Origin: an uncultured Planctomycetia bacterium
GTDB taxonomy: Bacteria; Omnitrophota; Gorgyraeia; Tantalellales; Tantalellaceae
Length of the DNA: 64,000 nt
Assembly: GCA_964527765.1 (NCBI GenBank)
Contig: CAZGQR010000001.1
Span: forward strand, 25,961-89,960
Direction of reading: 5' to 3'
Part shown: in pieces, positions 12,761 to 53,962 of the stretch
Position numbering within the stretch: the stretch's first letter is position 1
Layout: each line of letters starts with the position of its first letter
The notes under the pieces: model-generated
Database searches by the model: none
The model's input: only the letters and a program-made list of their open reading frames with translations
Told to the model about the DNA's origin: nothing
Position numbers and translations under genes: made by a program

Positions 12761-15556
12761 CTATCTCATCAAGAGCTTTTTGAGATATGCTCCGGTATGG
12801 GACTTCTTGCCGGAAGCCACTTCTTCGGGGGTGCCGCAAGCGACCAGCTCGCCGCCGGTATCTCCGCCTTCCGGCCCGAGATCTATGATATAATCCGCGG
12901 ACTTGATGACATCCAGGTTATGCTCGATCACCAGTACCGTATTTCCGGCGGATACCAGGGCATGCAGCACATCCAGCAGTTTGTGTATATCCGCAAAATG
13001 TAACCCCGTAGTAGGCTCGTCCAGTATATACAGCGTCTTGCCGGTAGCCGTCTTGGACAATTCTGTCGCAAGTTTCACCCTCTGCGCTTCTCCGCCGGAT
13101 AATGTCGTCGCCGGCTGCCCAAGCCTTATATACCCCAGCCCGACATCGTACAGGGTCCGCATCTTGTTCTTGATCGCGGGGATGTTCTCGAACAGCTTCA
13201 GCGCATCCTCCACGCTCAGATCAAGGACCTCAGAAATATTGTACCCCTTGTATCTTATCTCAAGCGTCTGGTCATTGAATCGCTTGCCGTTGCAGACCTG
13301 GCACTGCACATAAACGTCCGGCAGGAAATGCATCTCGATCTTTTTCATCCCGTCGCCCTGGCACGCTTCACAGCGGCCTCCCTTGACATTGAAACTGAAC
13401 CTGCCGGGTTTATAGCCCCGCATGCGCGATTCGGGAAGAGAGCTGAAAAGCTTTCGTATGGGGTCAAATGCTCCCGTGTATGTCGTGGGATTGGACCTAG
13501 GGGTCCTCCCTATGGGGGACTGGTCTATCACTATCACTTTGTCTATGTGTTTAACGCCGTTTATCCTTTTATGCTTACCGGGTTTTACCTTGGACCTGTA
13601 AAGTTTTTTAGCCAGCGCCCTGTATAGAACCTCGTCGATGAGCGTGCTTTTCCCCGATCCCGAAACACCCGTCACGCAGTTAAACACGCCCAACGGGATA
13701 CTCACATCTATGCGTTTGAGATTATGCTCGGCGGCGCCTATCACTTCCAGGCGTTTATCCGGGTCGTATTCCCGCCTTTTCTTCGGCACCTCGATCTTCA
13801 GATCTCCGCGCAGATACTTGCCGGTAAGCGACTGCTTGTTCTTGAGAATATCAGCCAATCCTCCTACTACGACCACTTCCCCTCCATGTTCACCCGCCCC
13901 GGGACCCAGGTCAATAATATAGTCCGCCTTTCGTATAGTCGTTTCGTCATGCTCGACCACCACAAGCGTATTCCCGAGCTCTTTAAGCGCGACCAGGGTG
14001 TCAAGAAGCTTGCGGTTGTCTTTCTGGTGAAGCCCGATACTCGGTTCGTCCAGGACATAGAGCACGCCGACCAGGCCGGCCCCGATCTGCGTGGCGAGCC
14101 GGATCCTCTGGTCCTCGCCTCCTGAAAGCGTGTTGCTTCTCCTGTCCAGGGTGAGATACCCAAGCCCCACATTTATCATGAATTCCAGCCGTGACTTGAT
14201 CTCCTTGAGGGCTTCCTCGGCGATCTTCTTCTGCATCGCGTCAAGCTTAAGGCGGGAAAAATACTCTTTCGCCCCGGTTATGGACATCTCGCACGCGTCG
14301 GCAATGTTCTTGCCCCCGATAAACACATTACGCGATTCCTTGCGCAGGCGCTGCCCCTTACACTCCGGACAGGGCTGAACCGACATGAAACCGCTTATCA
14401 TCTCCTTGATAAAATCGCTTTCGGAGTGGCGGAAACGCCTCTCCAGATTGGGAATAACGCCTTCAAAACCCGATTCATCATCCCCGTAAAGGACCATCTT
14501 CTTCTGGGCGGAAGTCAGCTTCTCGAACGGCATCTCATGATCAAAGCCATGATACCTGGCCATCCTTCGGATATGCCGGCGGTAGTGAAGCACGATCCCT
14601 TTGCCGCCTCTTTTCCAGGGAACAACCGCCCTTATAAGAGATTCGGTCTTGTCCGGGACTATCAGTTCCGGATCTATCTCCATTTTGTTCCCCAGGCCGT
14701 TGCAGGCGGGACACGCGCCGTAAGGGCTGTTAAAGGAAAAATTTCTCGGTGCCAGCTTTTCAAAACTTATCCCGCACCTGAGGCAAGCGTTCTTCTCGCT
14801 GAAAAGTATATCCTCGGTAAGGTTCCCTTTTTCATCCAGCAGAACCACAACAGTAGTACCGGAACCGAGCTTGAGCGCCGTCTCGACCGAATCGGACAGG
14901 CGCGACCGGATACCCTTTTTCATGACAAGCCTGTCCACCACCGCCTCAATAGTATGCTTGACCTTTTTATTCAGTCTCGGGATGCGGTCGCCTATATCCA
15001 CGATCTTTCCGTCAAGCCTTATCCTGATAAGCCCTTCTTTTCTCGCGCCCTTCATCACCTCAACATGCTCACCTTTTCTTCCCTGGATCAAGGGAGCGAG
15101 TATCATCAGCTTTTTGCCTTCCTTAAAGGACATGATACGATCGACGATCTGCTGCGAGCTCTGTCCGGATATTTCCCTGCCGCACCTGGGACAACGCTGG
15201 ATGCCGATCCTCGCGAAAAGCACTCTCAGGTAATCGTAGATCTCGGTCTGCGTGCCTACGGTCGATCGGGGATTCCTTCCAGCCGTCCTCTGCTCGATGC
15301 TTATGGTCGGCGATAATCCCTCGATGTAGTCCACGTGGGGCTTCTGGAGCTGTTCGATAAACTGTCTCGCGTAGCTGGATAAGGACTCCACGTAACGCCT
15401 TTGGCCTTCAGCATATATGGTATCAAACGCGAGAGACGACTTGCCGGAACCGGAAAGGCCGGTAACCACGCACAGCGTGTTCCGTGGAATGCGGACATCG
15501 ATGCTTTTGAGGTTATGCTCCCTGGCGCCTTTTACGAAAATATGATCCTTGCTCAT
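12761..15556 (-). CDS. uvrA: Excinuclease ABC subunit A
   Basis: ORF track 12761..15613. Two ABC ATPase modules ([20 protein letters not shown]) and zinc fingers. The likely start is [17 protein letters not shown]. Confidence 0.95.
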
Positions 15557-15627
15557 AGGGTATGATTGTAACATAAATATATTTACGTCACAACAAGTTA
15601 GTGATTTTCGCATTTGTGAAAATATAT

Positions 15628-15656
15628 TTGATTATTTTTAAAAAATGTAGTATATT
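15628..15656 (+). promoter_or_regulatory. Sigma-70-type promoter (TTGATT-N17-TATATT) for the XRE-cupin regulator gene
   Basis: The -35 is at 15628-15633, followed by a 17-nt spacer and the -10 at 15651-15656. An imperfect inverted repeat ATTTTCGCA-tt-TGTGAAAAT lies at 15604-15624, just upstream. Confidence 0.4.
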
Positions 15657-15708
15657 GTCAATATCGGAAAACAGCAAATACTTTTTGAGTTATCTCAAAG
15701 GAGGAAGT

Positions 15709-16260
15709 ATGAAAATAGGAAAAAGGATGCGTTTGTTGAGAAAAGAAAAGGATATCACGCTTGAAGAGCTTTCCGAGAAAAGCGGCGTGGCCCTGGCCAC
15801 CCTCAGCCGCATGGAAAACAACAAGATGGCGGGCACCCTGGCCTCCCATAACAAGATATGCAAGGCCCTCGGCGTCTCGATCTCCGAACTCTACCGCGAG
15901 CTCGAGGACGAAACCAAAACAGTCGAAGCGGTCCCGAAATACAAAAGAACGGAACACTTTATCCATGCCCGCAAGGCAAAATACGAACTCCTTGTCACGA
16001 AAACGCTCGACAAAAAGATAATGCCGCTAATGATGAAACTCGCAAGCGGAGGCAAAACACAAAAAGAACAAAATAAACCCGGCGTGGAAAAATTCATATA
16101 CATGATAGCCGGAACCCTTGAAGCGATTGTCGGCAACGAAACGCACACTCTAAAACGCGGTGACAGTCTCTATTTCGACGCTTCCCTCCCCCATGTATTC
16201 AAAAACAACGCCAAAACGGAAGCGGAGGCAATGTGCATTATTTCACCGCCGGCATTATGA
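15709..16260 (+). CDS. XRE-family HTH transcriptional regulator with a C-terminal cupin domain
   Basis: ORF track 15601..16260. The RBS AAGGAGGA precedes ATG at 15709 (MKIGKRMRLLRKEKDITLEELSEKSGV). The N-terminus is an HTH_3 domain and the C-terminus is a cupin (GDSLYFDASLPH). Confidence 0.75.
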   Translation: MKIGKRMRLLRKEKDITLEELSEKSGVALATLSRMENNKMAGTLASHNKICKALGVSISELYRELEDETKTVEAVPKYKRTEHFIHARKAKYELLVTKTLDKKIMPLMMKLASGGKTQKEQNKPGVEKFIYMIAGTLEAIVGNETHTLKRGDSLYFDASLPHVFKNNAKTEAEAMCIISPPAL

Positions 16261-16327
16261 TCGGTATGTCGTCATCCTGTAAGACTGGAAATCTATAACA
16301 TTGCTAATAAGCTTGAGGAGGAAAAAA

Positions 16328-16684
16328 ATGAATAAACAAAAAAAGATCCTGATCTGTGACGACGAAGAAGGAGTCCGGGAATCACTTAATCTGATACTCG
16401 AAGACATGTATAATCTTGATTTTGCTTCTTCGGGAGACGAAGCTATACAAAAAGCTAAAAATCAAAAGTACGATGGAGTATTGCTGGATATCAAAATGCC
16501 CGCAAAAGACGGCCTTGAAACCCTGGAAGAGCTCCGGCAAATATCTCCCGACGTGAAAGTCATCATAGTCACCGGATATCAAAGCGTAGAAACCGCCGCA
16601 AAAGCCGTCCAACTGGGCGCAATGGACTACATCACCAAACCTTTTGAGAGCGATGAGGTAAAGGAAAAGATTGGGAGAATTTAA
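16328..16684 (+). CDS. Response regulator, receiver domain only (CheY-like)
   Basis: RBS GAGGAGG precedes MNKQKKILICDDEEGVRESL. The phospho-acceptor pattern DD...D(LLDIKMP)...T...K is present and there is no output domain. Confidence 0.8.
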   Translation: MNKQKKILICDDEEGVRESLNLILEDMYNLDFASSGDEAIQKAKNQKYDGVLLDIKMPAKDGLETLEELRQISPDVKVIIVTGYQSVETAAKAVQLGAMDYITKPFESDEVKEKIGRI

Positions 16685-16757
16685 AGTATTGCAAAAGAAA
16701 TAAATTTGGGATAGCACTAAAAAACTCAATTAAGTATCCATTAGAGTATTGTTTATA

Positions 16758-18383
16758 ATGATTAACTTATATGGCATATCTAACATACTTACTACAATAA
16801 CTAGCATGGCTATGGCCCTATTCGTCTATACAAAAGGCTATAGAAGCAAATTATGCAAAACATGGTCAATTTTTGCCATTTGTGTCGCTATTTATGGATT
16901 TGGCGCGTATATGGCATCTGGTTCTAGAAACTCATTATCAGCATTTTTTTGGTGGCAAATTTCCTATATAGGCGTTATCATGCTACCTGCCTTATTTATA
17001 CATTTTGTTTATGTTTTTTTAAATATCAAACGAGCTTACATTATTAGAATTGTATACATTTTAAGTTTAATAGTGTTAGCTGCGGATATTTTTAGTAAAA
17101 ATTTGTTTGTTGGAAATGTTAGTTTATTATTCACAAATTCGAAATGGTTTACCCCAGCTTGGTGGATTTATCCCCCCGGCCCCCTGCACATCTTCTACAC
17201 TCTTTTCTTGTATATTGGATTACTAATATATGCTCATGTTGAATTGATTAAAGCATATAAAAATTCTGGGCACCTTAAACAACAACAAATCAAGTACTTT
17301 TTCTTTGCTACAACATTGGGCTTTGTCGGAGGTGGAACTTCCTATTTGCCATGCTTTGGCATAAATGTATATCCTGTTTTGAATATAACTGTACCTTTAT
17401 ATCCGCTAATTATGACTTATGCTATTATCCGCCATCAACTTATGGATATAGAAGTTATAATCAAAAAAACTCTTATTTATTCAGTGCTAATATCTGTTAT
17501 AACAATTCTTTATTTCATTATTGTTTATACCTTGGAAAAGATCTTTAGCATCATTGTAGGATATTATTCTATGCCATTAGCCATAACTATCATTACCTTC
17601 TTTTCAATAATATTTATCCCCTTAAAAAACAAAATTCAAAAATTTATTGATAAATATTTCTTCCATGGCTCCATAGATCAGATAGATGAGGAAAACATCA
17701 AGCTTCGCGAAGAACTTCAGAAAGCCGAAAAGCTAAAGGCGGTAGCTACCCTTGCCGCAGGTATGGCGCATGAGATAAAAAACCCTCTTACATCGATCAA
17801 AACCTTTACAGAATACATTTCTAAAAAGAAAACTGACCCGGAATTTCTTGAAAAGTTCCAAAAAATCGTCAGCGGTGAAGTTAACAGGATAAATTATATC
17901 GTCAAACAACTGCTGGAGTTTTCTAAACCCAGCGATCTCCAGCTTAAAGAAACCGGCATCGATAGTCTGCTGGATGAAACGTTGGATCTATTGAATAATG
18001 ATTTTCTGAAACATAACATAAAAATCGAAAAATGTTACTCTCCTCTGCCCTCGATCAAAGTTGACCCTTCACAAATGAAACAAGTCTTTCTCAATCTCTT
18101 ACTGAATGCCATAGACTCGATGGAAACTGGCGGGATTATCACGGCAACCATTAAACCAGGCAAAAACGATAATATAATAATAAAAATCAAAGATTCAGGT
18201 AAGGGCATAGAAAAAGAAGATCTCAAGCATATTTTCGACCCGTTTTTCAGCAAGAAAAACGGTGGAACAGGCCTCGGCCTCAGCGTAGTTCATGGAATTA
18301 TCGAAAAACACGGCGGAAAGATAAGCGTCGAAGGCGTCCCAGGCCATGGAACATCTTTCCAGATCAATCTACCAATCGATTAA
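16758..18383 (+). CDS. Sensor histidine kinase with an N-terminal polytopic (7-9 TM) membrane domain, HisKA_7TM-type
   Basis: ORF track 16749..18383 (TTG); the first ATG is at 16758. It has 8-9 hydrophobic helices, then the HisKA H-box (MAHEIKNPLTSIK) and an HATPase_c domain (GGTGLGLS). The loop YAIIRHQLMDIEVIIKKTLIY is shared with the second kinase. Confidence 0.8.
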   Translation: MINLYGISNILTTITSMAMALFVYTKGYRSKLCKTWSIFAICVAIYGFGAYMASGSRNSLSAFFWWQISYIGVIMLPALFIHFVYVFLNIKRAYIIRIVYILSLIVLAADIFSKNLFVGNVSLLFTNSKWFTPAWWIYPPGPLHIFYTLFLYIGLLIYAHVELIKAYKNSGHLKQQQIKYFFFATTLGFVGGGTSYLPCFGINVYPVLNITVPLYPLIMTYAIIRHQLMDIEVIIKKTLIYSVLISVITILYFIIVYTLEKIFSIIVGYYSMPLAITIITFFSIIFIPLKNKIQKFIDKYFFHGSIDQIDEENIKLREELQKAEKLKAVATLAAGMAHEIKNPLTSIKTFTEYISKKKTDPEFLEKFQKIVSGEVNRINYIVKQLLEFSKPSDLQLKETGIDSLLDETLDLLNNDFLKHNIKIEKCYSPLPSIKVDPSQMKQVFLNLLLNAIDSMETGGIITATIKPGKNDNIIIKIKDSGKGIEKEDLKHIFDPFFSKKNGGTGLGLSVVHGIIEKHGGKISVEGVPGHGTSFQINLPID

Positions 18384-18391
18384 TCCGGCTA

Positions 18392-19714
18392 TTACACTGT
18401 ATTGCGTAATTTCCCCTTTTTGTATGCCAGCAGGAAAGCGCTTACGATTATAGGATCGAACTGCGTCCCTGAATTGTCCTTGATTATCTGAACAGCAATT
18501 TCTGCCATTTTTTTCTGGCGGTAAGGTCTGTCGCTGGTTATTGCATCAAAAGTATCTGCAACAGAGATTATGCGGGAAATAAACGGTATCTCTTCGCCCT
18601 TTAGACCATCCGGATATCCGGCACCGTCAAACCTTTCATGATGGGCACGCACTTCCTTGGCGATATCCCCCAATTCCTTTATGGGATTAAGTATTGCCGA
18701 CCCTGTGATTGAGTGCTCTTTCACTTTTTCGTATTCTTCCTTAGTCAATTGACTGCTCTTGTTCAAAACACTGTCCGGAACGCCGATCTTTCCAACATCA
18801 TGAAGCAACGCCGCTAGATGAAGTGTCTCTTTGAAGTTTTTATATGCCTTTGCTTCAGGGACATCCTCAAGTTCCCCTCCAATGGCCAATGCATATTGCG
18901 TAACACGCTCGGTATGGCCGTGCGTGTAAAGATCTCTTGCGTCTATAGCGGCTGCCAGGGAAATAGCTGTATGAATGAATATGCGATGTTCCCTTTCATA
19001 AAGACTGTGGACCTCGTAGATCTTATCCTGAAGGTCTTGTATAAGCTGCGCATTTGCAAGTGCCATGGCCACATCATTGGCAAGCGTTGTGAAAAACCCT
19101 ATTTCCTGTCTGGAAAATTTCATATTAGACAGTTTCTTTCCCAGGACAAAGACACCTATAAGATCTTTTTTATAATAGATCGGTATACAGATATTGGCCT
19201 TTAAAAGTTCCATCTGTCTGATAGTCAGCTCGATCAATTCAGCGAGTTCCTCATCCTTTTTAAGGTTCTCATCTCTCTGCAGAATATCAAGAAGTCCTTT
19301 ATACTCGATATCTCCTGTTTCTGATATCTTGTAATTGTACCGTTCATTAAACATCCGGATGAGGGGATTCTCAAACGTAAGCCGTATAAATCCTACCGGT
19401 ATCTTAACGCCTTCCGCACCCTTGCTATCGATAAGTATAAAAGAATCCTTGTCTTTGCGGTACAGGAGCATAGCCGTATGTGTAACTTTTACCTGTTCGT
19501 CTATGATCCTGACTATCATACGTATAAGGCGCTCGGGCTTTTTGAACCGTATCATGGTGCGAGAAGCGTTCTCCAGAAAGAATTGGTAATCCAATTCCGG
19601 TTCTTGTCTCTTCTGGACACTTTCCGAATCAATGGGGATCAGAGCACCGTCACAATTCTTCATTTTTTCGACGATCCAATCCTGTAGCTTTAACCAGTTA
19701 TCTTCGTATGACAT
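18392..19714 (-). CDS. GAF domain - HD-GYP phosphodiesterase (c-di-GMP hydrolase family)
   Basis: 440 aa with a GAF-like N-terminal half. The HD-GYP motifs are HGHTERV...HDVGK...HHERFDGAGYP. Confidence 0.8.
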   Translation of the reverse strand: MSYEDNWLKLQDWIVEKMKNCDGALIPIDSESVQKRQEPELDYQFFLENASRTMIRFKKPERLIRMIVRIIDEQVKVTHTAMLLYRKDKDSFILIDSKGAEGVKIPVGFIRLTFENPLIRMFNERYNYKISETGDIEYKGLLDILQRDENLKKDEELAELIELTIRQMELLKANICIPIYYKKDLIGVFVLGKKLSNMKFSRQEIGFFTTLANDVAMALANAQLIQDLQDKIYEVHSLYEREHRIFIHTAISLAAAIDARDLYTHGHTERVTQYALAIGGELEDVPEAKAYKNFKETLHLAALLHDVGKIGVPDSVLNKSSQLTKEEYEKVKEHSITGSAILNPIKELGDIAKEVRAHHERFDGAGYPDGLKGEEIPFISRIISVADTFDAITSDRPYRQKKMAEIAVQIIKDNSGTQFDPIIVSAFLLAYKKGKLRNTV

Positions 19715-19726
19715 CTTTTCTCCTAA

Positions 19727-20101
19727 CTACTTTTCCATTTTAATCTGCTCTGCAACCGTAAGAACAGTCCTCTCAAGCTGTTCAAGCAAAAGCGGCTTGG
19801 TGATGTACTCTGTTACCCCATGATGTTTTGCCTCCTCGGCTTTTTCCACATCTTCAACCGCCGTGATTATTATTACTTTTTTGGTGCTATCTTTTTTGCG
19901 GATCGCTTTAAGCGCCTCTATGCCATCCATGACCGGCATTTTTATATCCAGGAGGATTATATCCGGATTTATGGACTTTACTATGCTAAGAGCCTCTTTC
20001 CCGTCATAAGCGACAGATACTTCAAAATTCCTTTCTTTAAAGAAATTCTTCACAAAATCACACACATCCACTTCATCATCAACAACTAGTAGCTTCAGCA
20101 T
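19727..20101 (-). CDS. Response regulator, receiver domain only
   Basis: 124 aa: MLKLLVVDDEVDV...LLDIKMPVMDG...T...K, with no output domain. Confidence 0.8.
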   Translation of the reverse strand: MLKLLVVDDEVDVCDFVKNFFKERNFEVSVAYDGKEALSIVKSINPDIILLDIKMPVMDGIEALKAIRKKDSTKKVIIITAVEDVEKAEEAKHHGVTEYITKPLLLEQLERTVLTVAEQIKMEK

Positions 20102-20114
20102 GATATTTCTCCTC

Positions 20115-20492
20115 CTATTTATTCACCTTTGCGGCTCTATTAACAAGTTCCTCAAGAGATTTCAGGCTAGTTATGGGTTTTTCGACAAACGCATAAGCGC
20201 CTTTTTTCAATAAACGTTCTTTAGTCTTCCCGGGATCCCTGTACGCTGTTATAAAAATAACCTCAATATCTGCATTCAACTTTTTTATTTCTTCCATCAC
20301 TTTCTCGCCGTTAAGACCGGCCATCCTCAAATCAAGTAGAACAATATCGTATTTTTTCTGCCGCAAAAGCCCTAGCCCTCTATCGCCTCCCGATGTTGCA
20401 TCTATCTCATAACCCCTTGGTTCAAAATATTGTTTCAGCAAATCCGTAAAGCTTATTTCATCATCAATCGACAAAATTCTCGGCTTTTTCAT
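20115..20492 (-). CDS. Response regulator, receiver domain only
   Basis: 125 aa: RILSIDDEISF...LLDLRMAGLNG, with no output domain. Confidence 0.8.
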   Translation of the reverse strand: MKKPRILSIDDEISFTDLLKQYFEPRGYEIDATSGGDRGLGLLRQKKYDIVLLDLRMAGLNGEKVMEEIKKLNADIEVIFITAYRDPGKTKERLLKKGAYAFVEKPITSLKSLEELVNRAAKVNK

Positions 20493-20525
20493 CTTATTCT
20501 TTCTGCTTCAAGCACTAATTCTGCC

Positions 20526-22643
20526 TTAACTAGGCTGCACGGCATTAAAACTGAGACTAAAACGGGTTCCATTCCCAAGCTCACTTTGAACGCTTATATG
20601 CCCATTATTTCTTTCAACGATCTGCTTTACAATAAAAAGTCCGAGTCCGGCACCTCTACCCGGTTCTTTGGTAGTAAAAAACGGATTAAATATCTGACCC
20701 AAATGGTGCTTGCTTATTCCGACACCCGAATCTTCAATATCAATATAGACCCTTTTATTATTGCCTGATGCTCGTATGACGATTTTCCCATTTCCTTTGA
20801 TGGACTGGGCAGCATTTCTTACAATGTTGAAGAATATTTCCTGCAGCTGCTTCCGGTCCGCTGAAATGCATGGGAGGTCTTTTTTGATCTCTTTAGTAAT
20901 AATAATGTTTTCCATTTTTAAATCATGCTCTACAAGAGATATAACTTCATCCAATTCTTTTTCCACCTGAACATTACCCGCCATTTCTCCCTTTGCAGGC
21001 TTTGCAAAAGAAGAAAGTTTTTTAGTTATAACTGTAGCTCTGTCTGTCTCGTTCATAACTTTTTTCATTATTTCCTGCGCCTTTTCAAGTAATTCCTCCG
21101 GACTCTTGCCCTTGTAAACCCCGTCCTTCAGATTTAAAAGAAACATCTCGCATTGCCCGCGCGCTATCCCCAGGGGATTACAGATCTCGTGGTTTATGCC
21201 GGCGGAAAGAGTGCCTATGACTGCCATCTTCTCTCTCTGCGCCGCCTGGGCTTGGGCTTCCGAAAGTTTCTCGAAAAGCTGGGCATTGGTTATGGCTATG
21301 GAAAGCGTCCTTGCGAGAGGCAAAAGTATATCAATATCGTCCTGCGTGTATTCCTCGTCAGATTTCTTTTGCCCCAAAGACAATATTCCAACCATATTTT
21401 TATGGTGCATTAGCGGAATAACCAGAGCCGCGTTTAATTCGTGCATTTTCTTTTCTATATCGGTACCTACAAACTTTTTGCGTGCAGGGTCTTCCAAAAG
21501 AATATGTTTACCACTTCTTCGCATATAGGAAATGAGGTCTTCTTTATCGCTTAATTTATATGTAGTATTTTCTGGTTTACCAGACACCGATGCAGCTGTT
21601 CTGAATCCTTCTTTTCCTTCATCATAAAGCATTATAGAAGCATTATCTAATTTCACTATCTCCGCCAGCTTATTTACCGTAAGATTAACCAGCATGTTAA
21701 GATCAAGAACCATAAGTACCTCGTCAGAAAATGTTCTCAAAAGCTGCCTATAATCATATTTTTTCTGGAATAAGTACTTATCGGTAGTATTTCTTAAGAA
21801 ACTTTCAAGCGGACGAAGCATGAGAACCACTATCAATATAGAAGGTACCATTGCAATCCAGCGATTTCGAACCACATTTTCGAATACGGCAGATCCCAAA
21901 TAAGCAAAGCTCGCAAAAACCGCATAAGCAGCTACAAAAAGACCGGCAAAAATGAGGGTCTTTTTGACAATGACCTCGATGTCCATGAGCTGGTGCTTAA
22001 CAATTGCATATGCTACAATCCCTATATACACGCTTATCAAAATATTTGCATATGGCGGGAACTTTAGTCCATACCACAAAGGCCAATTATTTGCCCCTCC
22101 GAAAAAACCCACTATAGCTGCTAAAGTAAAATATCTTATTTGCATTTTGCGTCTAGAAGATCCAATATTTGCATTTTTCACCAAAAAAAAGAATCCGTAA
22201 AAACATTGAAAAAACCAAAACAATAAATAGAAATTAAAAAGAGTGGTTGGCTCTGGCCAATATCCAAAATTATATTTAGTGACAATATTGTGATATAAGT
22301 CCCCATGTATATTCGCCGCTATAAAGTAAATATTTAATAAGGCACATATTGCTAAAGATCGCTTTTGTTGCTCAAATATATTTAAAAAAACAAAAACAAA
22401 AAACAAATAAGCTAAACTTATTAGGATAAAACCTGTTACCAATATTTTAAACCAGAAAACAGCCATGTTTTTAGGTTCAGCAATTTGCCAAAAAAAATAA
22501 CCCAGGCTATAAAGAGCTACGCTTGCGTTTAACCAAAAATAAACAATATTTTGTATATTTCTTTTATTTTTTAAAAAAACAAAAATACCTAAACTAATAC
22601 AAGCTAAAAAATTTAGCATCCCTGTTAATGCCAAATAAGTCAT
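20526..22643 (-). CDS. Sensor histidine kinase: polytopic N-terminal membrane domain (HisKA_7TM-type) + GAF + HisKA + HATPase_c
   Basis: 705 aa with at least 7 TM helices and a GAF-like region. The H-box is INHEICNPLG and the ATPase motif is GAGLGLFIVKQIV. It is a paralog of the 16758..18383 kinase. Confidence 0.8.
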   Translation of the reverse strand: MTYLALTGMLNFLACISLGIFVFLKNKRNIQNIVYFWLNASVALYSLGYFFWQIAEPKNMAVFWFKILVTGFILISLAYLFFVFVFLNIFEQQKRSLAICALLNIYFIAANIHGDLYHNIVTKYNFGYWPEPTTLFNFYLLFWFFQCFYGFFFLVKNANIGSSRRKMQIRYFTLAAIVGFFGGANNWPLWYGLKFPPYANILISVYIGIVAYAIVKHQLMDIEVIVKKTLIFAGLFVAAYAVFASFAYLGSAVFENVVRNRWIAMVPSILIVVLMLRPLESFLRNTTDKYLFQKKYDYRQLLRTFSDEVLMVLDLNMLVNLTVNKLAEIVKLDNASIMLYDEGKEGFRTAASVSGKPENTTYKLSDKEDLISYMRRSGKHILLEDPARKKFVGTDIEKKMHELNAALVIPLMHHKNMVGILSLGQKKSDEEYTQDDIDILLPLARTLSIAITNAQLFEKLSEAQAQAAQREKMAVIGTLSAGINHEICNPLGIARGQCEMFLLNLKDGVYKGKSPEELLEKAQEIMKKVMNETDRATVITKKLSSFAKPAKGEMAGNVQVEKELDEVISLVEHDLKMENIIITKEIKKDLPCISADRKQLQEIFFNIVRNAAQSIKGNGKIVIRASGNNKRVYIDIEDSGVGISKHHLGQIFNPFFTTKEPGRGAGLGLFIVKQIVERNNGHISVQSELGNGTRFSLSFNAVQPS

Positions 22644-24016
22644 ATTATTTCTTTCCTAATAATGAAAAATAAAATAATGCCTGATTTATCTCTATGAACA
22701 TCAACATTTATTTTCCTTGCCTGTAAACTTTTTTTTATTAAGTCATCTAAATTTTTTCTAGCTCTAAAATAAAAATTCCAATCACAGAACCAATTTGGAG
22801 GTAATGGCTTGTATTTTAACGTATCTTTATGCGCGATAATTAAACGTCCCGCTTCAGCCACATATTTATCAAACCATATATTTAATAACTTTCCTGATAT
22901 TCTATCGGGCAGATAATCCATTAAACCTGTAGTATAAACCAAATCATTTTCCCCTATAATTTTAGAAAAATTTGCTCCATTAGTTATAAATTCCAAAACA
23001 TCATTTTTAAAATAATTAAAGGATGCATAGCTACTGAACTTTTCTACTGCTCCCCTTGTAAATAAAACAGCTTCACTATCTTGATCGAGCAAATTTATAA
23101 TAATTTCTTTTCCATTATCTTTGATTTTCTGTAAAAAATGGGCATCATGAAATAACTCTCTGATTTCTTTGCCGGAACCACACGCAATATTTAAAATTCT
23201 TACTTTTTTAAGAGGTGTATTTAAAATAAAGGTTTTTAAATAGTCTCTCATCCAATCCTTCCTCGATCTAACCGCCACTGCATATTTATTATTTTGAAAA
23301 TATACATCAAAACAGCGCCCAATTCCCTTTGACAGAACTTTAGTATCATATATATGTTCCATAATTCTATAATCACCAGGATATCCCCTAGGCTTATCAT
23401 AAGATCTCTTAACGATGTAACTTTTATAAGCCCAACAGCTCACTAATTCTCGAAATTCTTTCTTAATCCTTCGCACAACTATTTTGTTACTAACAGAATT
23501 TTCAAATTCATTAGCCTTTTCCATAATGTCTTCTGTTAAACTATGCAATAATCTTTCGGCTTCTGTTTCTTCAATCATATTGTGTGCAATTTTATTCATT
23601 AACTCAAATAAATCGAAAAAATACTGTAATACATATTTCGAAAAAATTTTTACTTGTCTTCGCTCATTTTTATTTTTGACTTCCCTTATTACATCCTTGA
23701 ATTTTCTAAATATTAAACTTTTTCGAATTAAATTAAGTATTTCAATATCAATATCCTCATATTTAGCCCCATAAACATATTTCCATTCTTTTGAAATTTC
23801 GCGCTCCCATATGATGTTAAACTTTATGTGCACTTTGCCATACGGCAACTTTAAGTCCCCAGATAATCTTGATGATTTTAATTGCTGCATTGTCACAAAA
23901 CACAATCCATCATCATTCAAATTAATACTTCTCGCACATTGCTTTCCCAACTTTAAAGGAAATTCTGATTTAATTCTTGGGGTCATTCTGTTATCAATAG
24001 TCGCAATCTCAAACAT
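22640..24016 (-). CDS. Putative PilZ-like N-terminal domain fused to a class I SAM-dependent methyltransferase
   Basis: ORF track 22640..24136, but the first 120 nt overlap the upstream HTH gene in another frame. The likely start is MFEIATIDNR at 24016, whose ATG overlaps the HTH stop (ATGTTTGA). The N-terminus has RMTPR (RxxxR) and INLNDDGLCF, a degenerate D/NxSxxG. The C-terminus has methyltransferase motif I (VRILNIACGSGKEIREL) and a post-I acidic residue (LLDQD). About 29% GC. Confidence 0.5.
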   Translation of the reverse strand: MFEIATIDNRMTPRIKSEFPLKLGKQCARSINLNDDGLCFVTMQQLKSSRLSGDLKLPYGKVHIKFNIIWEREISKEWKYVYGAKYEDIDIEILNLIRKSLIFRKFKDVIREVKNKNERRQVKIFSKYVLQYFFDLFELMNKIAHNMIEETEAERLLHSLTEDIMEKANEFENSVSNKIVVRRIKKEFRELVSCWAYKSYIVKRSYDKPRGYPGDYRIMEHIYDTKVLSKGIGRCFDVYFQNNKYAVAVRSRKDWMRDYLKTFILNTPLKKVRILNIACGSGKEIRELFHDAHFLQKIKDNGKEIIINLLDQDSEAVLFTRGAVEKFSSYASFNYFKNDVLEFITNGANFSKIIGENDLVYTTGLMDYLPDRISGKLLNIWFDKYVAEAGRLIIAHKDTLKYKPLPPNWFCDWNFYFRARKNLDDLIKKSLQARKINVDVHRDKSGIILFFIIRKEII

Positions 24017-24209
24017 CTTTTCCTCTGCTACTTTTTTGACTTTTTTCCTGTTTTTCAATCCACTCATCGATCGTTTCTTTTTTGAAGCGCCATTTGGAGC
24101 CAACTTTGAACCCGGGGATCTTGCCCTCCTGGGCATGCTTGTAAATTGTGACGACTTTCATCTTGAGATAGTCGGCCAATTCGTTAATTGTCATTACTGA
24201 ACTCGCCAT
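24009..24209 (-). CDS. Excisionase-family (MerR-like) helix-turn-helix DNA-binding protein
   Basis: 66 aa: MTINELADYLKMKVVTIYKHAQEGKIPGFKVGSKWRFKKETIDEWI, the typical excisionase/Xis-type HTH. Confidence 0.65.
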   Translation of the reverse strand: MASSVMTINELADYLKMKVVTIYKHAQEGKIPGFKVGSKWRFKKETIDEWIEKQEKSQKSSRGKDV

Positions 24210-24580
24210 ATTTCCCCCTATGATAAATTGATTTAATTTACTATATTGTGCTTTTTACTGCTGTTTATTGATATAGAATGGTTTAATTTAATATGGTTTA
24301 ACATAGATTGTAAAATCGCGAAATAATATATAATCATAAAACCACTATAAACTGTGGACTTTTCAACAAAAAAACTATTACGATTTGCTACCTTTTGGTG
24401 TATTTTCCGACAATTTACCCTAATCTTTTATAGATTGGTACAAATTGGTCGGCGTTGTTAAAGTATAATGGGGAAAAGACAAAAGTCAAGAGCATGAAAA
24501 AAGTTTTTGAGTATATACCCATTTGATGTGGACCACTTTTTACGGTACACAATATATGGTGTTAAAAATGGCCTTAAAAA

Positions 24581-25030
24581 TTAGAATATTTTGAGGTATA
24601 GCAGAATTTGCAGAATCAGATTGGTGTATATAGCAGCTACAAGATCATCCAGCATTATCCCCCATCCCCCGCCCATTTTTTCCACGGATCTCATGGGAGG
24701 AACCTTTATAATGTCTATAATTCGGTACAGGATAAAGCCAGTAAGAATGGTGGAAGTCCTAATAGGAACGAAGAGAAACACAAGAAATATAGAGGCGAAT
24801 TCATCAATAACAACGATCGAGGGGTCTTTGTAGCCAATTTCCGCTTCCACCTTGCCCGAGGATACTGTGCCGGCGATAAAAAAGACGGCAAAAGCAATCA
24901 AATATATGACCAGATTTCCGTGCAGGGCCAGGCAAAGGACCAGACCGGCCAGGCTTCCCAGCGTACCCGGGACAATACTGATACGGCCTATCCCCAATAC
25001 AGTTGCGATAAGATCATGTGCCTTTTTCAT
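24581..25030 (-). CDS. pgpA: Phosphatidylglycerophosphatase A
   Basis: 149-aa membrane protein with a GIGRISIVPGTLGSLAGL motif. Confidence 0.75.
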   Translation of the reverse strand: MKKAHDLIATVLGIGRISIVPGTLGSLAGLVLCLALHGNLVIYLIAFAVFFIAGTVSSGKVEAEIGYKDPSIVVIDEFASIFLVFLFVPIRTSTILTGFILYRIIDIIKVPPMRSVEKMGGGWGIMLDDLVAAIYTNLILQILLYLKIF

Positions 25031-25604
25031 TGAACAGATATTTTCTGCTCCCTATCAGATAAGAAACACCGCTTACTATGGTCAACGTGACAGTTATGAG
25101 CATGAGTATAAAAATAAGCTGTCTGTACCAATATTCGAAGGAGGGATTCCAAAAGCCAAATGTCCGCACGCCCGATTCCTTGATCACGATGAATATCAAT
25201 ATCACGAGTATGGACAGCATCTGCGAGACAGTTTTTTGCTTGCCTCCTGCTCCCGCGGGGAGAACTTTATTGTATTTCAAGGCCACAACGCGGATGCTGG
25301 TGATCACAAATTCCCTCATGATGATGATAACCACCATCCATGCCGGTATAAGTTTCATCTCCACGAACGCAAGAAAAGCGGCAAGGACCAGTATTTTGTC
25401 CGCCACGGGATCCATGATCTTGCCGAAATCGGAAATGGTATTATATCTTTTAGCAAGAAACCCGTCCAGATAATCGGTAAGAGCGGCAATGATAAAAATA
25501 CCCAGCGCGGCGACCTTACAGAACACCCCCTTCGAGAAAAGAAAGATCATGAACGCAAAGGTCAATATTATCCTGGTCAGCGTGATCTTATTGGGTAAAT
25601 TCAT
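25014..25604 (-). CDS. pgsA: CDP-diacylglycerol--glycerol-3-phosphate 3-phosphatidyltransferase
   Basis: 196 aa with the CDP-alcohol phosphatidyltransferase motif DYLDGFLAKR...DPVADK. Confidence 0.8.
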   Translation of the reverse strand: MNLPNKITLTRIILTFAFMIFLFSKGVFCKVAALGIFIIAALTDYLDGFLAKRYNTISDFGKIMDPVADKILVLAAFLAFVEMKLIPAWMVVIIIMREFVITSIRVVALKYNKVLPAGAGGKQKTVSQMLSILVILIFIVIKESGVRTFGFWNPSFEYWYRQLIFILMLITVTLTIVSGVSYLIGSRKYLFNEKGT

Positions 25605-53245: not shown

Positions 53246-53962
53246 TTATCGCCTCCCCTTTATCCCCATATCCTCCAGGAAGATCTCTATATCCCGATTG
53301 GCCTCCCAGATCCTCCTGATCTTCTCTCTCTTTCGGATAAACGCTCTGACAACAGCAGGATCAAAATGCCCTCCGGATCTTTCCCTTACCATGGAAACCG
53401 ATCTTTCGAAATTATACGCCCTTTTATAGGAGCGCTGTGACGCGAACGCGTCGAAACAATCCGCAAGGGCGACGATCCTTCCGTAAAGAGGTATGTTCTC
53501 CCCTTTAAGTCCGCGCGGATATCCGGATCCGTCAAATCGTTCGTGGTGCGTCAGCGCGATGGTCCTGCAGGCGCGCATCATAGGGGACTTCGCGTTCTTG
53601 AATATCTGGGCGCCGACCTCGGGATGCCTTCTCATGAGCTTCTTCTCCACGGGGGTCAGCTTGCCCTTCTTCTTGAGGATCTTATCGGGAAGCATGACCT
53701 TGCCGACATCGTGCATGGGGCTTGCATATCTTATGACCGCCACCTCCTCCTTCGGCAGGCCAAGACCTTCAGCTATCGTGGCGCTGTAGTCGGCTATCCG
53801 GACAAGATGGGCCCCGGTGGCCGGGTCACGAAATTCCGCCATCAGCGCCAGACGGAACACCATTTCCAGGTGGGAATTCTTGAGCTTATTGTAGGCCTTT
53901 CTCAGCTCCTTATGGGTCCTCTGGAGCTTATCGCAAGTATCCCTCTTTGTTTTTCTGGCCAT
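53246..53962 (-). CDS. Stand-alone HD-GYP domain phosphodiesterase
   Basis: 238 aa with the motifs HDVGK...HHERFDGSGYP. Confidence 0.8.
   Translation of the reverse strand: MARKTKRDTCDKLQRTHKELRKAYNKLKNSHLEMVFRLALMAEFRDPATGAHLVRIADYSATIAEGLGLPKEEVAVIRYASPMHDVGKVMLPDKILKKKGKLTPVEKKLMRRHPEVGAQIFKNAKSPMMRACRTIALTHHERFDGSGYPRGLKGENIPLYGRIVALADCFDAFASQRSYKRAYNFERSVSMVRERSGGHFDPAVVRAFIRKREKIRRIWEANRDIEIFLEDMGIKGRR

Follow-up and report, generated by a model that had tools for sequence, protein, structure and literature searches.

A conserved gene cluster of Omnitrophota as a candidate Phc-like signalling cassette linked to cyclic di-GMP

In the CqsA/CqsS, LqsA/LqsS and AgrBD/AgrC systems the gene for a signal synthase lies beside that for a multi-pass kinase, which detects the hydrophobic or peptide signal in the membrane. 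In the RpfC/RpfG system of the diffusible signal factor (DSF), a kinase-driven REC-HD-GYP protein (RpfG) responds to a fatty-acid-type signal, and RpfC is a hybrid kinase with an Hpt domain. PhcB, a 3-hydroxy fatty acid methyl ester synthase, produces methyl 3-hydroxymyristate or methyl 3-hydroxypalmitate. The phcBSRQ operon of Ralstonia encodes two regulators without DNA-binding domains, PhcR and PhcQ (PMC11960443, PMC8578825); PhcQ affects production of the Phc signal (PMC6989110), and the pathway ends in a separate DNA-binding protein, PhcA (PMC8578825). Signalling by cyclic diguanosine monophosphate (c-di-GMP) is present in Omnitrophota (bioRxiv 10.1101/2023.11.21.568195). A 64,000-nt stretch of contig CAZGQR010000001.1 (GenBank assembly GCA_964527765.1) from an uncultured Omnitrophota bacterium, hereafter the window, was found to carry a cluster of signalling genes arranged in two convergent operons (15706-24209), as delimited from a listing of its open reading frames (ORFs) and Pfam scans. 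The left-hand operon includes, in order, the genes for an HTH_17 protein, a methyltransferase with a putative N-terminal PilZ part, a histidine kinase (HK2), two response regulators (REC3 and REC2) and a GAF-HD-GYP protein, and the right-hand operon those for an XRE-cupin protein, a third response regulator (REC1) and a second kinase (HK1). An earlier interpretation made from the letters of this DNA, here called the sequence-only reading, had placed the unit at 16328-22643; the elements it named lie where it put them, but the unit was drawn too narrow. With a probability of roughly 0.4, this conserved cluster is a Phc-like signal-synthase/receptor cassette joined to c-di-GMP, a proposal of which every step is conditional.

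The part of the cluster that is conserved most widely is the methyltransferase gene and the kinase gene that follows it. A scan of one genome per species yielded 80 loci with relatives of the 458-aa methyltransferase, in which ORFs were called and searched with the window's own domains; these and other loci are cited below by their L numbers. Among the 76 loci having enough downstream sequence for the count, the methyltransferase gene is directly followed on the same strand by a gene for a HisKA_7TM kinase in 57, distributed over Omnitrophota, Spirochaetota/Leptospirales, Nitrospirota, Margulisiibacteriota and Endomicrobiales. This methyltransferase and 7TM kinase pair is the conserved core, and clustering of the neighbouring ORFs revealed no further gene kept across most loci. 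The window is part of a JGI metagenome contig of 151 kb, whose closest relatives are without exception metagenome-assembled genomes (MAGs) of Candidatus Omnitrophota. In one of these, GCA_014728075.1, the full cluster lies between pgpA and uvrA, as in the window, with a methyltransferase 44% identical to that of the window, and in GCA_015231405.1 a reduced form occupies the same position (41% identity). The HK1 branch, consisting of XRE-cupin, REC1 and HK1, occurs only in the closest relatives and is a paralogous, lineage-specific accessory input.

One homologue of the 458-aa protein is annotated by JGI as 'extracellular factor 3-hydroxypalmitic acid methyl ester biosynthesis protein', which is the product name of PhcB. 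A tblastn search of plasmids retrieved an operon of Paraburkholderia graminis coding for a methyltransferase of 468 aa, a kinase of 445 aa (His233), a REC protein of 134 aa and a REC+X protein of 344 aa. This methyltransferase groups with Burkholderiales proteins of 65-92% identity, a tight family annotated with the product name of PhcB. The published values for the Phc proteins are 464-468 aa for PhcB, 336-337 aa for PhcQ and His230 for PhcS (PMC8578825, PMC11960443). The lengths and the histidine position agree with these values; the Paraburkholderia operon served as the source of the PhcB reference. By BLASTP, the window methyltransferase shares 25% identity with the Paraburkholderia PhcB-like protein over 263 aa (E 1e-19), and alignment of the two families with hhalign gave a probability of 99.7% (E 2.8e-26) over 245 columns, the aligned region including a KPxGYxGDY segment and conserved Arg and Trp positions. 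Distant homology thus links the catalytic domain of the window methyltransferase to PhcB. The core of HK2 is 32% identical to that of the PhcS-like kinase. The gene order of the window was also compared with L088 and with the published operon (PMC8578825), and has likewise a kinase and regulators without DNA-binding domains. The notion that a degenerate PilZ domain makes up the N-terminus of PhcB (conserved R22, 'NLQRNS') was not supported by profile-profile alignment.

The window protein has no significant Pfam match of its own, and no PilZ hit was obtained for it at E<0.01; a match of an over-extended 498-aa version of the ORF to ABC-3C MC5 (E 5e-4, below cut-off) was taken as noise. The ORF is 458 aa in both database copies of the contig. 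A search for relatives of the 458-aa protein found 188 homologues, mostly from Omnitrophota, which carry PilZ followed by a class I S-adenosylmethionine (SAM) methyltransferase, most with a hit to PF07238. In an alignment of 59 sequences the RxxPR motif is present in all (59/59), and in the second PilZ motif, [DN]-x-S-x-x-G, the D/N and G positions are invariant (59/59 each), with Ser in 49/59. The family profile matched the PilZ domain of Alg44 with E 1.4e-3. The AlphaFold model of the 458-aa protein (predicted local distance difference test, pLDDT, 93.8) combines six beta-strands (residues 20-86) with a long bundle of helices and a methyltransferase domain of Rossmann fold; in the model, the six strands are consistent with a PilZ barrel. 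Fusions enlarge this picture: some homologues have a REC domain at the N-terminus, as in protein P0037 (REC-PilZ-methyltransferase), and one, P0008, has HTH_17 there (HTH_17-methyltransferase). An exhaustive profile search returned 6826 representative clusters with E<=1e-3, of which 1147 reach E<=1e-30, the PilZ part being present in some and absent in others. A PilZ-methyltransferase fusion was described neither in a PilZ domain survey nor in an Omnitrophota paper.

Hints to the substrate were provided by neighbouring genes of related loci. A type I polyketide synthase (PKS) contains the same methyltransferase domain (35% identity), which in L084 adjoins a PKS. FadL/TodX outer-membrane channel genes lie upstream of the methyltransferase gene, directly in L021, L023 and L047 and at 2.5 kb in L078, and acyl-AMP ligase genes are found 3.4-6.2 kb from it in eight loci; none of these substrate hints exists in the window. 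The PKS, FadL and acyl-AMP ligase neighbours, which concern a minority of loci, are compatible with a hydrophobic substrate of acyl type. Acyl-AMP ligases and major facilitator superfamily (MFS) transporters recur near the methyltransferase gene (L022, L059, L065, L068, L070, L075, L076), mainly in Leptospirales.

Both kinases contain, N-terminal to the kinase core, a domain matching HisKA_7TM (PF16927), with 48.3 bits for HK1 and 33.1 bits for HK2 against a gathering score of 28.6. Their membrane domains share 28% identity (E 1e-28) and their kinase cores 36% (E 5e-37), as predicted by the sequence-only reading, which had taken them for paralogues of HisKA_7TM type and had proposed these alignments as a check. 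The H-box histidines are His341 in HEIKNP (HK1) and His485 in HEICNP (HK2), and HATPase_c scored 96 and 82 bits, respectively. The HisKA match of HK2, at 21.7 bits, does not reach the Pfam cut-off (26.9), its H-box being intact nonetheless. With an H-box histidine and HATPase_c each, both proteins are predicted to be functional HisKA-type kinases. In the AlphaFold model of HK1 (pLDDT 86) there are nine transmembrane (TM) helices, arranged as seven, a cytoplasmic loop and two more, with a periplasmic beta-hairpin between TM4 and TM5; HK2 can be aligned to HK1 along the entire membrane region. The count agrees with the 7-9 helices expected earlier, and the shared loop motif was recovered exactly in both kinases, as YAIIRHQLMDIEVIIKKTLI in HK1 and YAIVKHQLMDIEVIVKKTLI in HK2. 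In the HK1 model it runs from the last part of TM7 through a cytoplasmic loop of ten residues into the first part of TM8.

A word-indexed protein search with both 7TM domains returned only 61 kinases, mostly short or partial, so that the statistics on motif and adjacency were drawn from ORFs called in the fetched loci. The 20-residue juxtamembrane motif marks the family and is not confined to HK1 and HK2, the consensus Y-A-I-x-[RK]-[YH]-[RQ]-L-M-D-I being present in 42 of 68 related kinases. Orthologues of HK1 with 65% identity were found (P0122, P0124). NCBIfam gave no family-level assignment, all matches being far below the cut-offs, with AtoS/ZraS as the best similarities of the kinases and AtoC/ZraR as those of the receivers. 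PrsK (TIGR02916) was tried as an identity for HK2 and rejected, since residues 228-697 align at 147.9 bits against a cut-off of 300. No ligand of HisKA_7TM was given in the literature found that names the domain. The GAF domain of HK2 is paralogous to that of the HD-GYP protein (23% identity, E 1e-11), so that the two proteins may share a cytoplasmic ligand.

REC1, REC2 and REC3 are 118-125 aa long, and Response_reg is the sole Pfam match of each. Comparison with CheY and Spo0F as references showed D12, D13, D57, T87 and K109 to be kept in all three, position 106 being Tyr in REC1, Tyr in REC2 and Phe in REC3. Truncation by frameshift, with loss of output domains, had been named in the sequence-only reading as a finding that would speak against it. 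The gaps from the receivers to the next genes measure 12-73 nt, and receiver orthologues of the same size exist in other genomes. The receivers are thus not frameshift remnants, because there is no room for a lost domain, orthologues have the same length and the cluster is syntenic elsewhere; they are predicted to be complete, phosphorylatable single-domain proteins. The statements of the sequence-only reading that no receiver has an output domain, and that these are not classical transcriptional two-component systems, stand.

Each receiver type keeps a characteristic neighbour. REC3-type receivers follow HK2-type kinases (L006, L007, L009, L011, L016, L017), REC2-type receivers immediately precede HD-GYP genes (L006, L009, L011, L038, L072, L078), and REC1-type orthologues adjoin HK1-type kinases and XRE-cupin (L006, L009). 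Small REC genes are located within 6 kb in 26 of 61 loci. In GCA_014728075.1, a single protein of 268 aa unites the REC3 and REC2 orthologues, with both acceptor Asp residues kept (L003:13527-14333, the same as L006:13521-14327). Tandem REC-REC ORFs are also present in L028 and L034. A further Omnitrophota locus (L005:7633-15374) has eight consecutive REC-containing genes after the kinase and a PP-binding gene resembling that of an acyl carrier protein, running into a giant gene of 6541 aa.

With several REC-only proteins per kinase, the block had been read as a phosphorelay or a chemotaxis-like sink. In the form of a His-Asp-His-Asp phosphorelay, or of a chemotaxis-like system in which a phosphate sink is combined with adaptation by methylation, this explanation also has in its favour that a methyltransferase gene adjoins a sensor kinase and that the methyltransferase CheR1 is known to be regulated by a PilZ protein, MapZ (cited in bioRxiv 10.1101/814665). 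A phosphorelay is unsupported because neither kinase is a hybrid and no Hpt protein was found in the cluster or among the Pfam-covered genes of the window; the related loci were screened with the cluster's own domains only, a screen blind to Hpt. CheR, as defined by CheR_N and CheR SAM-binding domains beside MCP, CheA and CheB, was rejected as an identity for the methyltransferase, and no CheA, CheW, MCP or CheB accompanies it. Both forms are considered very unlikely, and one of the receivers REC3 and REC2 may yet serve as a phosphate sink.

The GAF-HD-GYP protein has intact motifs, HDVGK at residue 305 and HHERFDGAGYP at residue 358, and is a predicted c-di-GMP phosphodiesterase. It and the methyltransferase are the only enzymatic outputs of the block, just as the sequence-only reading had stated. 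In the window, REC2 and HD-GYP are encoded by separate genes 12 nt apart, not by an RpfG-type fusion; a fused REC-HD-GYP protein is encoded in L060 in the same gene context. Elsewhere in the window (53246-53962, minus strand) a second HD_5 protein, of HD-GYP type, is encoded; it has 238 aa and no sensor domain, and its gene has housekeeping surroundings, adjoining two Band_7 genes.

From the observed gene content, catalytic and phospho-acceptor residues, synteny, methyltransferase-kinase adjacency, PhcB homology, family PilZ motifs and fusions, the following course of signalling can be envisaged for a Phc-like cassette joined to c-di-GMP. The PhcB-family SAM methyltransferase would make a hydrophobic methylated small molecule, most plausibly a methyl ester of fatty-acid type. 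This product, or a related membrane cue, would be sensed by the 9-TM HisKA_7TM domain of HK2, which would set the autophosphorylation of His485, and HK2 would then phosphorylate REC3 and REC2. Phosphorylated REC2 might activate the adjacent GAF-HD-GYP protein, the two acting as a split REC-HD-GYP of RpfG type, and c-di-GMP would be lowered. Reading of c-di-GMP by the PilZ domain of the methyltransferase would close a feedback loop. REC3 may act by protein-protein contact on the methyltransferase or on the HTH_17 protein, the former being suggested by the REC-PilZ-methyltransferase fusions.

Several observations weigh against this proposal. Regarding the comparison with Phc, only columns 206-458 align with PhcB, the N-terminal ~200 residues (putative PilZ and helical bundle) having no counterpart, and HK2 and PhcS have unrelated sensor domains. 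Regarding c-di-GMP, the window protein has NLNDDG as its second PilZ motif, with Asn for Ser, its PilZ part alone is below the Pfam PilZ threshold, and Pfam scans detected no diguanylate cyclase in the window. HD-GYP is found in just 7 of 61 loci, and in two of these, L072 and L078, the methyltransferase is without PilZ, so that the c-di-GMP loop would be lineage-specific and not family-wide. The Spirochaetota pairs have no adjacent REC. The pairing of kinases and receivers is read from gene order, and the substrate and function assigned to the methyltransferase are deduced from homology and context. Finally, L090 has in its enzyme slot a Shikimate_DH-like, NAD(P)-binding Rossmann protein of 401 aa that is no relative of the methyltransferase. 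The rest of that operon (L090:8026-13593) keeps the same frame, with HTH_17, enzyme, 7TM-GAF kinase, REC, REC and GAF-HD-GYP, and the substitution suits an enzyme acting as a regulated effector as well as it suits a signal synthase.

Indeed, the methyltransferase might be an output enzyme under the control of a phosphorylated receiver and c-di-GMP, which modifies a lipid, a metabolite or a macromolecule, HK2 then sensing an external or membrane cue and no autoinducer loop being involved. Besides L090, where a different Rossmann enzyme takes its place, the resemblance to a response-regulator output that the REC-PilZ-methyltransferase fusions confer on the enzyme, the phospholipid genes pgsA and pgpA adjoining the cluster and the exchange of regulatory domains at the methyltransferase N-terminus all favour such a role. 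That N-terminal domain is PilZ, REC or cyclic nucleotide (cNMP)-binding within the family, the last being observed beside the PKS of an Oxalobacteraceae locus (L084:3331-4797), where it replaces PilZ. An output gene would, however, not usually be expected upstream of its kinase gene and translationally coupled to it, an arrangement that recalls phcB-phcS; the catalytic domain is related by descent to PhcB, a signal synthase, and many Spirochaetota pairs lack any REC or PilZ that could convey regulation to the enzyme. An effector role is therefore regarded as a possibility, on the doubtful side.

The absence of a DNA-binding output, also claimed in the sequence-only reading, holds for the receivers but not for the block, which includes two conserved HTH proteins, XRE-cupin and HTH_17. 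The receivers might act on transcription indirectly, phosphorylated REC1 by binding XRE-cupin and phosphorylated REC3 by binding HTH_17, with HD-GYP and the methyltransferase as side branches. Both HTH genes are kept in the cluster of the closest relatives, XRE-cupin accompanying it in L006, L007, L009, L011, L015, L033, L028 and L013; an HTH_17-methyltransferase fusion exists, REC-only genes stand beside HTH genes in archaea (PMC5847659), and the Phc pathway ends in PhcA, likewise a separate DNA-binding protein (PMC8578825). Against this, HTH_17 is upstream of the methyltransferase gene in just 8 of 73 loci and XRE-cupin is present in 9 of 61, and the domain scan of the loci gave no REC-HTH fusion. 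Control of transcription as the principal output is accordingly judged improbable.

The coordinates of the cluster and its flanks are collected in Table 1. In the left-hand operon the HTH_17 gene, called in both database copies of the contig, overlaps the methyltransferase start, the methyltransferase and HK2 genes overlap by their stop and start codons (ATGA), and the remaining gaps of 12-33 nt indicate tight packing. The HK1 and HD-GYP genes converge, leaving only 8 nt between their ends, and a scan for terminator-like hairpins found none there (18375-18400). Promoter-like and terminator-like sites in 15400-24700 were not more frequent than in shuffles, leader sites being present at chance level, so that these scans are uninformative on operon boundaries. 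The spacer before the HTH_17 gene is probably the promoter region of the left-hand operon. An Rfam scan of 15000-25200 gave no match, for instance to a c-di-GMP riboswitch. The two available annotations of the contig differ: the JGI calls (L001:12278-15298, window 17346-20366) truncate HK1 to 345 aa, with loss of the 7TM domain, and REC3 to 83 aa, whereas the ENA copy of the same contig has HK1 with 541 aa and REC3 with 125 aa, and gene annotation of the AT-rich membrane part is thus unreliable.

Table 1 Features of the signalling cluster and its flanks. Coordinates are window positions.
Feature	Coordinates	Strand	Evidence and remarks
uvrA	12761-15613	-	ORF listing and Pfam
XRE-HTH and cupin regulator, 184 aa	15706-16260	+	HTH_3 41.9 bits, Cupin_2 51.5 bits; opens right-hand operon
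REC1, 118 aa	16328-16684	+	Response_reg 109 bits, no other match
HK1, 544 aa (541 aa from ATG at 16758)	16749-18383	+	HisKA_7TM, HisKA, HATPase_c; no GAF
HK1 juxtamembrane motif YAIIRHQLMDIEVIIKKTLI	17418-17477	+	HK1 residues 224-243
GAF-HD-GYP phosphodiesterase (predicted), 440 aa	18392-19714	-	HD_5 135.9 bits; closes left-hand operon
REC2, 124 aa	19727-20101	-	Response_reg only; 12 nt upstream of HD-GYP gene
REC3, 125 aa	20115-20492	-	Response_reg only; directly downstream of HK2
HK2, 705 aa	20526-22643	-	HisKA_7TM, GAF, HisKA, HATPase_c
HK2 juxtamembrane motif YAIVKHQLMDIEVIVKKTLI	21951-22010	-	HK2 residues 212-231
Class I SAM methyltransferase with putative PilZ domain and helical bundle, 458 aa, PhcB-family catalytic domain	22640-24016	-	
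HTH_17 (MerR/excisionase-type) protein, 66 aa	24009-24209	-	Pfam HTH_17 63.8 bits; opens left-hand operon
AT-rich (GC 0.29) non-coding 370-nt spacer, pgpA to HTH_17	24210-24580	.	
pgpA, pgsA, rimO, rodZ, ftsK	from 24581	-	

The GC content falls from ~0.51 in the flanks to 0.38 across the cluster and 0.296 in the methyltransferase gene, and a gene of excisionase type, HTH_17, stands at one edge, features that would suit a recently acquired genomic island, mobile or defence-related, without an integrated host function. The position between pgpA and uvrA is shared by MAGs whose methyltransferases are 41-44% identical to that of the window, which largely refutes such an origin, and recent transfer poorly explains the AT-rich methyltransferase gene because synteny is kept at only this level of protein identity. 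No integrase and no tRNA gene adjoin the cluster edges, and PADLOC returned only generic HTH, REC, HD and ATPase matches, on which the defence-island reading was rejected; acquisition of this kind is scarcely credible here. In several other genomes too (L006, L009, L015, L033, L078), and at syntenic positions, the methyltransferase gene far exceeds its genome in AT content, with GC contents of 0.294 in L006, 0.31 in L033, 0.305 in L015 and 0.359 in L078.

Two kinases with REC-only regulators are by themselves fairly ordinary, and the new part is the pairing of the methyltransferase with a 7TM kinase together with the PilZ and HD-GYP links. Extended beyond this cluster, the comparison with Phc leads to a wider and more doubtful suggestion, namely that Phc-type signalling occurs outside Burkholderiales. 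PhcB-related methyltransferases, taken as the 1147 clusters with E<=1e-30 and partnered by HisKA_7TM kinases in phyla such as Omnitrophota, Spirochaetota and Nitrospirota, would then make a hydrophobic methyl-ester autoinducer sensed by the kinase encoded alongside, and in Omnitrophota PilZ might gate synthesis while the split REC/HD-GYP feeds back. If true, this would give the first ligand class for the orphan HisKA_7TM sensor domain; the domain is widespread, and its pairing with a PhcB-related methyltransferase offers a testable ligand candidate, the enzyme product. Should the analogy hold, quorum sensing by fatty-acid esters would no longer be restricted to a few plant-associated Betaproteobacteria but would reach several poorly known phyla, Omnitrophota among them. 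Omnitrophota are ultra-small and possibly host-dependent, which makes cell-cell or cell-host signalling there of special interest. The PilZ-methyltransferase fusion would represent c-di-GMP control of a small-molecule methyltransferase in cis, and even without an autoinducer the cluster would be a compact model of output-less receivers passing a kinase signal to second-messenger enzymes.

Comparison with described systems sets these features in order. The single REC domain, the full phospho-acceptor set and the expected action by protein-protein contact are shared with CheY, Spo0F and archaeal REC-only regulators (PMC5847659). Unlike CheY and Spo0F, the window receivers stand outside a chemotaxis or sporulation context, and their best NCBIfam similarity is to the receiver domains of AtoC, ZraR and NtrC. 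PrsK, the kinase of the XrtA/PEP-CTERM system, has the same order of multi-TM region, GAF and kinase as HK2; it differs in that the partner of HK2 is REC-only and not the sigma-54 regulator PrsR, the N-terminal domain of HK2 is HisKA_7TM and the score is under the cut-off. With CqsA/CqsS, LqsA/LqsS and AgrBD/AgrC the likeness is one of logic only, the synthase chemistry being unrelated and the kinases of other families.

The proposed logic agrees with that of RpfC/RpfG in that a receiver would control an HD-GYP phosphodiesterase, the fused REC-HD-GYP of the related locus L060 being of the same form. The window system differs from it in having REC2 and HD-GYP separate, a phosphodiesterase with its own GAF domain and a kinase that is not a hybrid with Hpt. 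In the MapZ-CheR1 pair of Pseudomonas aeruginosa, a PilZ protein reading c-di-GMP controls a SAM methyltransferase (cited in bioRxiv 10.1101/814665), and similar control is proposed for the window protein. There, by contrast, the putative PilZ domain stands in cis on the same chain as the methyltransferase, which is not CheR, and no chemoreceptor is present.

Relative to phcBSRQ of Ralstonia, the window cluster adds an HD-GYP phosphodiesterase and HTH_17, and its host belongs to Omnitrophota and not to Burkholderiales. The N-terminal half of the window methyltransferase, putative PilZ and helical bundle, cannot be aligned to the PhcB N-terminus, and the sensor of HK2, a 9-TM HisKA_7TM domain with GAF, is unrelated to that of PhcS. 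Common to both are the order of a SAM methyltransferase, a membrane histidine kinase and regulators without DNA-binding domains, the homologous methyltransferase catalytic domain and kinase cores with 32% identity.

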